Of a stretch of DNA of 64,000 bases, positions 19,134 to 23,860 are shown one piece after another. The DNA is from Polyangia bacterium. Its GTDB lineage: Bacteria; Myxococcota_A; Polyangia; Palsa-1104; JAEUJZ01. The stretch's first letter is position 1, and every line of letters starts with the position of its first letter. Position numbers and translations under genes: made by a program. The notes under the pieces are model-generated. The model was not told where the DNA came from. It did not search any database and was given only the letters and a program-made list of their open reading frames with translations. The stretch is taken from assembly GCA_046351595.1 (NCBI GenBank), contig JAXLYE010000002.1, positions 1,432,022-1,496,021 on the forward strand. The letters are read 5' to 3'.

Positions 19134-19146
19134 CTGCCAATTTGGC
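19134..19146. promoter_or_regulatory. 13-bp perfect palindrome TGCCAATTTGGCA; candidate enhancer (UAS) for the sigma-54 activator, about 75 bp upstream of the gspF -24 element
   Basis: Seen in the sequence. Related copies lie at 23807-23819 and 23848-23860, upstream of the divergent gspC sigma-54 promoter. Confidence 0.5.
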
Positions 19147-19255
19147 ACACGAGGGTGACGGGCCCGCCCCCGCGCCTGCCAAAACGACAGAGCGCAAGCG
19201 ACAGGAGCGAGCCGTTAGCAGCCGTACCGATGGCGCGGCGGCGGCCGCGATCCGC

Positions 19256-19954
19256 TCAGGGCTTGGACTCGCCGCCCTCGCCCTCGCCGCTGTTCTTGAC
19301 GTCGATGGCGCTGGGGACGATGCGCTGCAGCGGCTCCTCCTGCGCGGTGGCGGTCGGGATCTCGCCGCGGATGTACGGGTCGACGAGCGCGCGGTCGGCC
19401 GGCTCCACGGTCGGGTGCTTCTCGCCGTAGACCATGAGGCCGCCGCCGACGACCAGGTGCAGGCCGCCGAGGATCATCGCGACCAGCGCGCCGGTGCCGT
19501 CGCTGTAGGCGCGCTGCGAGGTCGGCTGGTCCACGGCCGCACCGACGCCGAGGCCGATGTGGGCGACGCCCATGCCGAGGATCACGCCGCCGACCATGAG
19601 GAACGGGCTGGCCTTGGTGGCGCGCACCCGCAGAAATGCCGGCTCGTCCGCGCGCCCGAGCCCCTTCTTGAGCGCCGGATCGTCGAGGTACAGGTGCCGG
19701 TAGCGCAGCGTCACCGGCTCGCGGTCCTTCTCGCGCAGCGCCGGCAGGAGCGCGCCCTTTCGCGCGTTGTCCGGGACCTCGGTCATGAGCTCGGCCGCCT
19801 TGCGCGGCACCAGGAACGGCTCGGACAGGCTGCACCCCGACGCGACCAGGACGCCGAGCCCGCCGAGCCCGAGCGCCGCCAGCCCCGGGGCGCAGCTCGC
19901 CCGACGCCGCCGACTCCGGCCCCGGTCCCCTCGGGCTCGCTCGCTCGCCGTCAC
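19256..19954 (-). CDS. Hypothetical membrane lipoprotein
   Basis: Lipobox LVASGC, then hydrophobic segments (ASPFLMVGGVILGMGVAHIGLGVG, ALVAMILGGLHLVVGGGLMV). No recognisable catalytic motif. The start is uncertain. Confidence 0.5.
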   Translation of the reverse strand: MTASERARGDRGRSRRRRASCAPGLAALGLGGLGVLVASGCSLSEPFLVPRKAAELMTEVPDNARKGALLPALREKDREPVTLRYRHLYLDDPALKKGLGRADEPAFLRVRATKASPFLMVGGVILGMGVAHIGLGVGAAVDQPTSQRAYSDGTGALVAMILGGLHLVVGGGLMVYGEKHPTVEPADRALVDPYIRGEIPTATAQEEPLQRIVPSAIDVKNSGEGEGGESKP

Positions 19955-19961
19955 CGCCGCC

Positions 19962-22073
19962 TCACATCCCGAACTTGGCCAGCTTCTTGTGCAGGCCCTC
20001 GCGCGTGATGCCGAGCGTCTCGGCGGTGCGCGTCTTGTTGCCGCCGTGCTCCTTGAGCGCCTGCACCAGCAGGAAGCGCTCGACCTCTTCCATCATGTCC
20101 TTGAGCGGCCCCTTCTGCGGCGTGATCTTGTCGAGCACCCCCTCGGCCTGGCGCATGCGGGGCGCCAGGAGCTCGGGCGTGATGAAGCCCTCGGGGTCGA
20201 CCTGGATGACCAGCCGCTGCACCTCGTTCTCGAGCTCGCGCACGTTGCCCGGCCAGTTATAGGCCGACAGCTGCGACAGCGCCTCGGAGGTGAAGCCGGC
20301 GACGGACTTTCTCATCTCGGCCGAGTACTTGCGCAGGAAGTGCTCGCACAGCGCCGGGATGTCCTCGCGCCGCTCGCGCAGCGGCGGCAGGCGGATCGGG
20401 AACACCTTCAGGCGGTAGTACAGGTCCTGGCGGAAGCGGCCCTCGGCCACCTCCTTCTCGAGCGAGCGGTTGGTCGCGCAGATGATGCGCACGTCGACGC
20501 GCCGGGTCTGCGTCGCGCCGATCGGCCGGATCTCGCCCTCCTGCAGCACGCGCAACAGCTTGGCCTGCAGGTTCAGCGACATCTCGCCGATCTCGTCGAG
20601 GAACAGGGTGCCGCCGTCGGCCACCTCGAACAGGCCCTTCTTGTCGCTGTCGGCGCTGGTGAAGGCGCCCTTCTTGTGGCCGAACAGCTCGGACTCCAGC
20701 AGGTTGTCCGGCACCGCGGCGCAGTTCTGCGCCACGAACAGCTTGTCGCGCCGCCCCGACTGGTAGTGGATGAGCGAGGCGATCAGCTCCTTGCCGGTGC
20801 CGGTCTCGCCCTCGATGCAGACTGTGGCGCGGGTGTCGGTGACCTTCTGCACCTGGCGCAGCACCTCGTTGAAGGCCGGGCTCTTGCCGATCGGCCCCTC
20901 GCCGCGGCGCTTCTCGTCGCGGCTCTTGAGGTAGCGGTTCTCGACGCGCAGCTGCTCCTCGGCCAGGCGCAGGCGGGCGAACAGGCGCGCGTTCTCGATG
21001 GCCAGCGCCGCGGTCCCGGCGAGCAGCAGCGCCGCCTCCAGGTCGCGCTCCTTGAACATGGCGGCCGAGGCGCGGTTGTCGCACTGGATGACGCCGCGGA
21101 TCTCCTCGCCGTCCCACAAGGGCACGCCGATGATCGACTGGATGCGCGCCCCGAGGATCGAGGCGGCGCCGGCCAGGTCCTGCGGCGCGTTGGCGATCAG
21201 CACCGCGGCGCGCTCCTGCAGCACGCGGCGGATGACGGCGCGCGAGGCGCGGATCGGCGGCGGCGTCGGCGCGGACCCGAGCGCGGCCTGTGCCCCGCTC
21301 GTCGCGGCGCTCGCCGGGCCCAGCGACGGCAGCGGCGGCGCGACCCGCGTCTCTATGTGCGGCGCGGTCCGGTCCGGGTCCCTGCGCGCGGCCCCGAACA
21401 CCGTCGCCATGCGGCCCTCGGGCCCGTCGGACAGCTCGACCGCGACGTGGGTGCACAGCGGCAAGAGCTCGAACAGCGCCTCGGCGATGCTCTCGAACGC
21501 CGCGTTGAGCTCGACGCCGCGCCGGCCGAGGCGGCGCGCCGCCGCCAGCAGCTGCGTCGCCAGCGCCGGATCACGCAGCGCCTTGCCGGCCACCGCCTCC
21601 TCGTCCGAGAGCGGCCGCCGCGCCAGCACCTCGCCGGCGTCGGGCTCCTCGGCCGCCTTGGCCGGCGCCCGCCCCAGGCCGAGCGCCGGCACCGTCGGTG
21701 AGGACGCCCCGGGCAGCGGCTGGAGCGGCGCCGCCTGCGCGAGCTCGCCGATGCGCACCGTGATCCGCACCGGCTCGACCGGGTCGCCGAGCAGCAGCTG
21801 GTCGCCGTCGCGCAGCGTCGCCTCGTGGCCGCAGCCCTGGTCGATGTAGTGCAGGCTGCCGTCGCGGCGCAGCAGGCGCGAGCCGTTGGTCGAGCGCAGG
21901 TCCTTGAAGATGTAGTCGCTGCCCTCGCGGAAGATCTGCCCGTGCTCGCTCGACAGGTGCACGTCCGCGAGCACGAGCTGGTTGTGCGGCGCCCGCCCCA
22001 GGGTGACGCTGCTCTCGGTGAGCACCACGCGGTGCCCGCGCTGCGTGCCGTTCTGGATCTCCAGCGCGATCAT
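19962..22073 (-). CDS. Sigma-54-dependent transcriptional activator (enhancer-binding protein) with N-terminal FHA and GAF domains and a C-terminal HTH
   Basis: The FHA domain includes [26 protein letters not shown]...[17 protein letters not shown]. The AAA+ domain has [15 protein letters not shown] and the GAFTSA motif ([15 protein letters not shown]). The C-terminus [22 protein letters not shown] is Fis-type. Confidence 0.85.
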
Positions 22074-22797: not shown

Positions 22798-22947
22798 GGG
22801 GTGAGTATATCTTTTCCCGACAGCAGCGGGCCGCGGCGAAAGCGGGCCGCGGCGGTTGTCCGGTTCGGGCGATTTGGGCGGTTCGTCCAGGTTTCCGGGC
22901 GGGTCGCCCGGACCCCGCGAGCTCGACCCGAGATCGTGGGTCGAGGG

Positions 22948-23565
22948 CTAGTCCCGCCGCTGCATCGCGCGCTGGCCGAGGCTGGGCAGCGCCGGGATGG
23001 TGCGCTCGGCCGGGGCCGCGGCGGGGCCCGGCGGCGCCGGCGGCGGCTCGGCGTGCGGCATGGCCAGCGCGCCCGGCGGCGACGCCACCGCGGGCACGCT
23101 CACCGGCTGCGTGGTCAGCACGCTCGGCGGCGGCGCGACGGGAGCCGGCGCGGCCGGGGCCTGCTGGACCGGGGCCGGGGCCGGGGCCGGGGCCTGCTGG
23201 ACCGGGGCCGGAGCCGGGGCCGGCGCCGTCGGGCGGGTCACGGCGCCCCCCTCGAGCAGGCTGGCGAGCTGCTGGTCCGAGACAAACGAGACGCGCGTCG
23301 CCATGATCTCTCCGAGCACCCTGCCGCCGACGTGCACGCGCACCGCGTCGCGCGCCTTCAGCGTCCCCTGGAACACACCCGCGACCAGCGCGTCGCCGAC
23401 CTCGGTGTCCTCGCAGCTCACGCTGCCGGTCTTGTTAACGAACAGCCGCCCGCGCACCCGCAGCGGCCCTCCCTCGATCTGGCCCTCAACCGTCAGGTCC
23501 TCCTCGGAGGCGACCTGGCCGATGATCTTGGTGCCAGAACCAATCGTAGTCTTCGTGCTTGCCAT
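22948..23565 (-). CDS. Bactofilin-family cytoskeletal protein with a Pro/Ala/Gln-rich C-terminal tail
   Basis: The N-terminal ~110 aa match the bactofilin (DUF583) fold pattern TKIIGQVASEEDLTVEGQIEGG...RVRGRLFVNKTG...VGD. An APAPAPAPVQQ repeat is encoded at about 23150-23230. Confidence 0.7.
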   Translation of the reverse strand: MASTKTTIGSGTKIIGQVASEEDLTVEGQIEGGPLRVRGRLFVNKTGSVSCEDTEVGDALVAGVFQGTLKARDAVRVHVGGRVLGEIMATRVSFVSDQQLASLLEGGAVTRPTAPAPAPAPVQQAPAPAPAPVQQAPAAPAPVAPPPSVLTTQPVSVPAVASPPGALAMPHAEPPPAPPGPAAAPAERTIPALPSLGQRAMQRRD

Positions 23566-23806
23566 TGTGCGTGCAGGGTATCACCCGAAAAAGCGCGGGG
23601 TCAAACAGCGCTCCGTCGGAGCGGGTCCGGACCGCCGCGGACCCGCGCGCGGTGCGAGGTGGCGGAAACCAGCCGGAGGCGGAAGGGGGATCCGGTGCGC
23701 GGTGTGCGGACCCGGCCGCGGCGCGCCTGCGCGGATCGCTCCTTAAGATCCGAAAGCGGGAGCCCGGGCCGGCCGCGGGGCCTGCTGGGGGGCCGGGCGG
23801 CGCGGC

Positions 23807-23860
23807 TGTCATTTTGGCAAGGGCGCTCCGGCCCGGTCCCGGGGCGCTGTCAATTTGGCA
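23807..23860. promoter_or_regulatory. Two direct copies of the half-palindromic motif TGTCA(T/A)TTTGGCA (23807-23819 and 23848-23860); candidate enhancer sites upstream of the gspC sigma-54 promoter
   Basis: Both copies share the extended context gcGctgtcaWtttggca and lie 87 and 128 bp upstream of the -24 element. Confidence 0.45.

Follow-up and report, generated by a model that had tools for sequence, protein, structure and literature searches.

In a 64,000-nucleotide stretch of the genome of a Polyangia bacterium (contig JAXLYE010000002.1; this whole stretch is hereafter the window), the genes of a type II secretion system (T2SS) form two divergent transcription units, each preceded by its own sigma-54 promoter and by a pair of 13-bp dyads with the consensus TGNCA-AWT-TGNCA. 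We find that these four dyads are very probably the enhancer of the two promoters. The distribution of gene neighborhoods suggests that the protein binding them is probably a response regulator resembling Nla4 of Myxococcus xanthus and encoded elsewhere in the genome, rather than the FHA-GAF-type activator whose gene lies next to the sites and for which the original prediction had proposed them as an enhancer. Below, the loci and contigs used for comparison are designated by L numbers.

Two pairs of dyads upstream of two sigma-54 promoters

For the counts we used the degenerate pattern TGNCAWWWTGNCA (the dyad can also be written as TGNCAAWTTGNCA). The window has three exact matches to it against 0.007 expected, and four matches with at most one mismatch against 0.34 expected, a number that none of 300 shuffles reached. 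All four are confined to the gspF and gspC promoter regions, and a chance origin is excluded. Two of the copies, at 23807-23819 and 23848-23860, had been reported in the original prediction and lie exactly where it placed them; the perfect inverted repeat that it described at 19134-19146 is real but is situated one base later, and a further copy on the minus strand, at 19177-19189, had been overlooked in its count of three. The four thus form two pairs, with centre-to-centre distances of 42 bp upstream of gspF and 41 bp upstream of gspC. Measured upstream from the respective -24 element, the dyad centres are at 81 and 123 bp for gspF and at 92 and 133 bp for gspC.

Both of the promoters previously proposed at these positions are borne out: the strict pattern TGGCAY-N5-TTGCH has two matches in the 64 kb, against 0.16 expected, and these are the two promoters. 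Each combines the GG of the -24 element and the GC of the -12 element at the fixed spacing, on the right strand and upstream of a gene, and each is conserved in orthologues. The end of the -12 element is separated from the start codon by about 40 nt in the case of gspC and about 105 nt in the case of gspF. We also considered the dyad as a cryptic -24 element and rejected this, since no GC follows the TGGCAC at 19142-19147 at the distance required of a -12 element and the orthologous dyads have TGTCA or TGACA instead.

The gspF and gspC cassettes can be aligned with each other over their full length. The similarity lies in the spacer from the proximal dyad to the -24 element, which scores 14 against -0.5 +/- 3.9 (0 of 2000 shuffles reach this score), while the spacer between the two dyads shows no similarity between the cassettes. 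Within the former spacer both promoters contain a block of the form TCC[TC]CGTCG, which is found as TCCTCGTCG in L010, L013 and L023. This block might serve as a third element of the regulation or as a place where the DNA bends; an IHF-like AT-rich site is absent. The likeness of the cassettes would be expected if the regulatory cassette had been duplicated as the operon split, and also if the spacer, with its conserved block, were under the same constraint in both promoters. Under either origin, the same control is retained by both halves of the secretion machine.

Conservation of the dyad across myxobacterial T2SS loci

A GspF-anchored scan of species-representative genomes yielded 80 Myxococcota loci, and the dyad statistics were computed on 81 GspF-anchored loci comprising 1.31 Mb. 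Exact dyads number 42 in these loci, where 0.6 would be expected. All but one of them (41) lie in promoter zones, which amount to 3.3% of the sequence, as do 76 of the 90 dyads with one mismatch. This excess over chance, together with the concentration of the dyads in promoter zones, strongly supports their interpretation as an enhancer.

Most GspF-anchored loci again carry the dyad upstream of gspC; in many of them it is paired and a sigma-54 promoter comes after it. For 41 promoters, a high-scoring GG-N10-GC is present 58-138 bp downstream of the dyad on the strand of the gene. The members of a pair are 39-43 bp apart in related loci (51 bp in one case), and where a locus seems to possess a single dyad, a second, weaker dyad follows at about 40 bp in the downstream direction. 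The consensus derived from 55 sites linked to promoters reads T53 G55 N C55 A53 A/T W T44 T55 G54 N C55 A52. In the alignment of the promoters of the window clade (alignment A2) the mean column identity is 45%, and the invariant columns correspond to the two dyads, the -24/-12 elements and the short TCC[TC]CGTCG block.

These observations uphold the earlier proposal that distance and dyad symmetry are typical of an upstream activating sequence: the pairs are four helical turns apart, lie 58-138 bp from the -24 element and stand out as invariant columns. Enhancer-binding proteins usually have their sites 80-150 bp upstream of the promoter (PMC7910581); the dyads display this location, occur at least twice per promoter, are conserved amid diverged flanks and are rare elsewhere. 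The distances between dyad and promoter additionally peak at 10.5 bp (R = 0.45), which is suggestive of helical periodicity, but significance is lost (p ~0.18) when the duplicate values of related loci are collapsed.

A variant arrangement was observed in a Bradymonadia-like group, where the dyad pair and a sigma-54-like promoter are placed in the gap between gspC and gspD and not upstream of gspC (L033 5456/5497, L034 5407/5448, L037 5320).

A REC-AAA+-HTH regulator as the predicted reader of the dyad

In about 40 GspF loci an activator gene is found directly upstream of gspC on the same strand. Its product is a response regulator of about 450-550 aa and not a protein of the FHA-GAF type: inspection of the sequences and precomputed Pfam matches confirmed an architecture with a REC domain, a sigma-54 AAA+ domain bearing the GAFTGA loop and an HTH_8 domain. 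Among 120 family members, the loop that contacts sigma-54 reads GAFTGA in 117 and GSFTGA in three, and the recognition helix LGIATRTIYRKL is present in 92, with the rest including close variants. The closest solved DNA-binding domain by sequence is that of an NtrC-family regulator (4L5E).

The dyads are situated between this activator gene and gspC, and in 24 of 34 cases also upstream of the activator gene; where the gap between activator and gspC is less than 70 bp, they are found solely upstream of the activator. A metagenome survey anchored only on the HTH signature of the REC family gave a concordant picture, with gspC directly downstream in 64 of the 72 loci that could be judged and dyads at the same positions. 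As the same DNA motif occurs both with and without an adjacent REC activator, a helix of the REC type is the parsimonious reader of the dyad.

The dyads upstream of the activator genes often lack a good sigma-54 promoter (e.g. L021 622/644, L042 2869, L062 2962, L084 3197/3235), a pattern that would fit autoregulation. Some of them can be read as overlapping -35/-10 hexamers (e.g. TGACATAATGTCA), which suggests that these Nla4-like genes may be subject to negative autoregulation at a sigma-70 promoter. The same dyads imply that the site can act outside sigma-54 contexts and, together with the second conserved block between the dyads and the -24 element, they would be compatible with binding of a different kind of regulator, namely a repressor or an architectural protein, the true enhancer being elsewhere. 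Of the explanations weighed here we consider this the least probable: a classic enhancer signature is given by where the dyads lie, by their pairing at four turns and by their tight association with sigma-54 promoters and one activator family, and no alternative regulator gene is conserved at the dyad-bearing T2SS loci examined.

A possible REC-type regulator in the clade of the window

The clade to which the window belongs (L010-L014, L016, L023) has kept the dyad pair and the promoter, and has no adjacent activator. As there is no REC gene beside the window gspC, the claim for this locus is that its enhancer would work like those of the other loci, and not that it has the same layout. An adjacent REC activator, along with the dyads, is retained in L090, whose GspF is 67% identical to that of the window. 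In addition, stand-alone members of the REC family (L092-L094, L166, L146) group together at 64-81% identity. One of these, L146, is a 2,098-bp contig from assembly ERZ650309, which also contains L009, a contig 98-99% identical to the window. The activator gene of L146 specifies a complete REC-AAA+(GAFTGA)-HTH protein with GDKRLAAQLLGIATRTIYRKL. The GC content of L146 is 70.0% (0.945 at third codon positions), compared with 69.5% for L009 and 70.5% for the window, and its coverage is 2.9x versus 4.3x for L009. The gene downstream of the activator is sigma-factor-like and is not gspC. These similarities are circumstantial evidence that a gene for a REC-type activator may be located at another site in the genome of the window organism.

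Several points weigh against attributing the dyads of the window to such a regulator. The 64-kb window has no gene for a REC-type activator, and the gene that does lie physically between both promoters is that of the FHA-GAF activator, which could have been functionally recruited. The link between L146 and the window rests on the shared assembly, similar GC content and similar coverage, and is circumstantial. No full dyad is present upstream of the stand-alone REC activators, and the autoregulation argument is consequently inapplicable in that clade. Finally, the orthology with Nla4 rests on locus-tag adjacency and on synteny in L083, not on sequence.

Two further features were seen around the stand-alone and related genes. 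An element TATGNCAGGAT, with one TGNCA half-site inside it, is present about 25-60 bp upstream of the start of the Nla4-like gene in L090, L092 and L093, none of which has a full dyad ahead of this gene. The sigma-factor-like gene (...LVEDHIPFVRSIARKLREQVPMVEFDDLVGFGMQGL...) is conserved after stand-alone high-GC Nla4-like genes (L146 1840-2098, L166 2349-3236).

The adjacent FHA-GAF activator

The original prediction had the dyads serve the adjacent FHA-GAF activator. Under such a model the protein would bind them through its C-terminal HTH_8 domain and activate both T2SS promoters, perhaps upon signals from Ser/Thr kinases received by its FHA domain. This has some appeal in the window and its closest relatives: the gene is situated between both promoters in the window, L008 and L009, the protein has an intact Walker A, Walker B, R-finger and HTH_8, two Ser/Thr kinases are encoded in the window, and the lack of an adjacent REC-type activator in the clade leaves room for a replacement. 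The wider distribution of the family makes it unlikely. FHA-GAF proteins constitute a large full-length family in Myxococcota/Polyangia, with matches ranging from 55% to 91% identity. The orthologues at 59-75% identity (L001-L007, L091) have unrelated neighborhoods: T2SS genes, dyads and strict sigma-54 promoters are all missing within 10 kb of them. What is kept at these loci is the preceding hypothetical gene and sometimes a bactofilin; together with the FHA-GAF activator these two also occur as a block without a T2SS. The layout of the window, together with its dyads, is common only to the closest relatives, L008 (91%) and L009 (98%). In one metagenome-assembled genome (MAG) a single contig carries both an FHA-GAF orthologue (L001) and a T2SS (L011), with about 110 kb between them. 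Conversely, the dyad is conserved at T2SS loci that have no FHA-GAF gene. Across genomes, therefore, this regulator and the motif do not co-occur.

The proteins themselves differ in the relevant parts. Within each of the two families the recognition helix hardly varies; that of the FHA-GAF family is invariant in 119 of 120 members and differs at nearly every position from the LGIATRTIYRKL helix of the activators that accompany the dyad. Furthermore, in the same number of family members the sigma-54 contact loop is GAFTGA in 90, GSFTGA in 25, GAFTSA in four and GAFTNA in one; the window lineage is among the four with the derived GAFTSA form. The assignment of the dyads to the FHA-GAF activator is thus not supported, and in other lineages the dyad is kept where a REC-AAA+-HTH protein is the activator encoded beside gspC.

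A form of dual control might also be envisaged, in which an Nla4-like activator would occupy the dyads while the FHA-GAF protein would join mixed oligomers or modulate activity without recognizing the dyad, thereby coupling secretion to kinase signalling in this lineage only. Hetero-oligomeric enhancer-binding proteins have reportedly been studied in M. xanthus by Volz and colleagues in 2012, and the FHA-GAF gene is retained between both promoters in three related contigs. As this adjacency is limited to one shallow lineage and is possibly the product of a neutral rearrangement, we regard dual control as very unlikely. A passage of one later article names HsfA and MXAN4899 as the two proteins of the Volz et al. 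2012 study (PMC7910581).

No enhancer common to the FHA-GAF operons was found; the sole feature that they share is a -10-like box beside the start codon. In L005, L008, L091 and L003 this box (GATATACTCA, GATATAATCA or GATAGAATGG) is separated by about 3-5 nt from the start codon of the gene that comes ahead of the FHA-GAF activator; in the window it is at ~22800-22815 on the minus strand. It suggests a sigma-70-type promoter with a leaderless transcript for the FHA-GAF operon. Upstream of the orthologous operon in L091 (~9040-9220) there is a tandem repeat of about four copies of ~46 bp (...CGCTCGGTCTTGGGCCATTCCTTCGCGTTGGGGTGCCA...). In L005 an FHA-kinase gene (12112-14100) directly follows the activator orthologue, and genes for two Ser/Thr kinases and for a PP2C phosphatase are present in the window (3169-4938, 40597-42324, 62227-63132); the kinases and the phosphatase are possible signalling partners of the FHA domain.

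A model for the enhancer and its known counterparts

Returning to the REC-AAA+-HTH regulator as the probable binder, we propose that the four dyads represent two copies of a two-site enhancer cassette, one for each sigma-54 promoter of the T2SS. Dimers of an NtrC-family enhancer-binding protein would occupy both dyads of a pair, which, being four helical turns apart, present themselves on the same face of the DNA. The bound dimers would then assemble into an active AAA+ oligomer that would loop to the sigma-54 holoenzyme at the -24/-12 elements and open the promoter using ATP. The predicted cognate activator is the REC-AAA+(GAFTGA)-HTH regulator with the LGIATRTIYRKL helix, whose gene in most Myxococcota is the one directly upstream of gspC.

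The closest parallel is provided by the enteric NtrC enhancer at glnAp2, where tandem dyads lie about 100-140 bp upstream of a sigma-54 promoter. NtrC is likewise a regulator with REC, AAA+ and Fis-type HTH domains, which oligomerises, loops to the promoter and also binds upstream of its own operon. The classical sites are TGCACC-N5-GGTGCA (17 bp) for NtrC and TGT-N10-ACA for NifA. The arrangement described here shares with glnAp2 the tandem dyads upstream of a sigma-54 promoter and, by prediction, the REC-AAA+-HTH regulator. It differs in the site itself, which is the 13-bp TGNCA-AWT-TGNCA and is distinct from the NifA site too, and in its target, a secretion machine in place of nitrogen assimilation. 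Another parallel is PilR, an NtrC-family regulator with a cognate kinase, PilS, that controls the pilin gene. PilR acts with sigma-54 at the pilA promoter of the type IV pili, a related filament/secretion machine (M. xanthus context in PMC6211767), but here a whole T2SS operon would be targeted and the recognition sequence is different. A further difference from the NtrC system is that no cognate kinase gene adjoins the gspC-linked activator; Nla4 figures among the orphan NtrC-like response regulators in PMC3892784. Within the Myxococcota, the sites of Nla28 and Nla6 of M. xanthus, which have been validated by mutation and electrophoretic mobility shift assay, are also paired half-sites of enhancer-binding proteins upstream of -24/-12 elements (PMC7910581). 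The half-site of Nla28 is CT(C/G)CG(C/G)AG, in 8-bp repeats that are often intragenic, whereas the dyad is A/T-centred, intergenic and tied to the T2SS.

In M. xanthus nla4 is MXAN_2516 (PMC11980068) and gspD is MXAN_2514, which encodes an essential secretin (PMC12475490). By its locus tag Nla4 is therefore two genes from gspD, as are the activators in 64 of 72 REC-family loci including L083, and it has the REC-AAA+-HTH architecture; the window itself, in contrast, lacks this protein. On the basis of the locus tags and of the synteny in L083, which is a Myxococcia MAG, the T2SS-adjacent REC family is probably the Nla4 family.

Gene layout and other features of the window

Gene identities in the window were derived from Pfam matches, with the gspC-gspD-gspE unit also supported by tblastn synteny. 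The colinear order gspCDEF... is shown by the T2SS operon of nearly all related loci, whereas the operon of the window is split and inverted, with a bactofilin, a hypothetical gene, the FHA-GAF activator and another hypothetical gene between the two halves. The coordinates are collected in Table 1.

Table 1. Regulatory sites and genes of the split T2SS region, in coordinates of the window
Feature	Position	Strand	Support or remarks
gspF-proximal dyad TGCCAATTTGGCA, perfect 6-1-6 inverted repeat	19135..19147	.	kept in L009; invariant columns in alignment A2
gspF-distal dyad TGTCGTTTTGGCA (gene-strand reading), fourth copy	19177..19189	-	kept in L009
gspC-distal dyad TGTCATTTTGGCA	23807..23819	+	kept in L008; orthologous position in L010-L016, L023
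gspC-proximal dyad TGTCAATTTGGCA	23848..23860	+	pattern scan, alignment A2
Sigma-54 promoter of the gspF-gspM/N operon TGGCACctggcTTGCT	19045..19060	-	strict match; identical in L009
Sigma-54 promoter of gspC-gspD-gspE TGGCATtgaccTTGCA	23946..23961	+	strict match; orthologous promoters in ~40 loci
Conserved block TCTCCGTCG between enhancer and -24, gspF	19090..19098	-	
Conserved block TCCCCGTCG between enhancer and -24, gspC	23897..23905	+	
Target operon 1, gspF to gspM/N	9365..18939	-	Pfam
gspF, first gene of target operon 1	17641-18939	-	
gspG	17104-17577	-	rest of target operon 1: pseudopilins, PilM-like GspL, GspM
Last open reading frame of target operon 1	9365-10882	-	no Pfam match; occupies expected gspN place
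Hypothetical gene preceding gspF, same strand	19256-19954	-	
FHA-GAF-AAA+-HTH_8 enhancer-binding protein, GAFTSA loop variant	19962-22073	-	Pfam
GAFTSA loop, residues 469-474 of the 19962-22073 protein	20665-20682	-	
Second hypothetical gene	22138-22797	-	
Bactofilin	22948-23565	-	
Target operon 2, gspC-gspD-gspE	24001..29580	+	Pfam, tblastn synteny
gspC-like PDZ protein	24001-24933	+	
Secretin gspD	24930-27578	+	
ATPase gspE	27628-29580	+	

NCBIfam gave no equivalog above cut-off for the FHA-GAF or the REC-type activator, nor for the two hypothetical neighbours. With gathering thresholds, Rfam reported two tRNAs as its only matches in the window and nothing at the motif regions. Away from the T2SS, the window contains a low-GC island (48200-53200; 61% versus 70% GC) with a 1400-aa open reading frame (48305-52507) that has a C-terminal AAA_21/AAA_15 ATPase domain of the OLD/AbiEii-like kind. 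It looks like horizontally acquired, defence-like DNA; an rRNA operon was considered for this island and discarded, as Rfam finds no rRNA in it. Beside the island, ARAGORN calls a tRNA-Arg(tct) at 47229-47311 on the minus strand, inside an open reading frame for a BON-domain protein (45882-47369). This call is unreported by Rfam at its gathering score and is possibly either spurious or what remains of a tRNA-like sequence.

Possible implications for Nla4 and the myxobacterial T2SS

While enhancers of sigma-54 activators are a well-known kind of element, a phylum-wide 13-bp T2SS dyad tied to one regulator family appears to be undescribed. T2SS COGs have been found computationally to be enriched among predicted sigma-54 promoters in Myxococcia (PMC12316311). 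The literature that was searched contained no link between Nla4 and the T2SS and no DNA site or direct target of Nla4. A tentative generalization, which we hold to be possible though somewhat short of probable, is that the dyad is the enhancer by which orphan regulators of the Nla4 family would drive sigma-54-dependent transcription of the T2SS throughout the Myxococcota.

More generally, the case of the window is a caution for annotation in that the closest activator gene need not be the user of a neighboring enhancer. For M. xanthus, the published background is that the myxobacterial T2SS exports MYXO-CTERM surface proteins, that nla4 mutants grow slowly in rich medium (PMC7910581), and that their phenotypes include, besides the slow growth, altered ppGpp and defects in development (PMC7910581, PMC11980068). 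According to PMC12316311, which cites Keseler and Kaiser 1997, M. xanthus is the only species in which sigma-54 is essential, and the reasons for this were never explained. If the proposed role of the Nla4 family is true, the T2SS would be the first direct target for Nla4, and the essential gspD would provide a testable reason for both the poor growth of nla4 mutants and the essentiality of sigma-54 in this organism. Dependence of the T2SS on sigma-54 and Nla4 via the dyad would connect these observations, among them the essentiality of gspD, the essentiality of sigma-54 and the slow growth of nla4 mutants.

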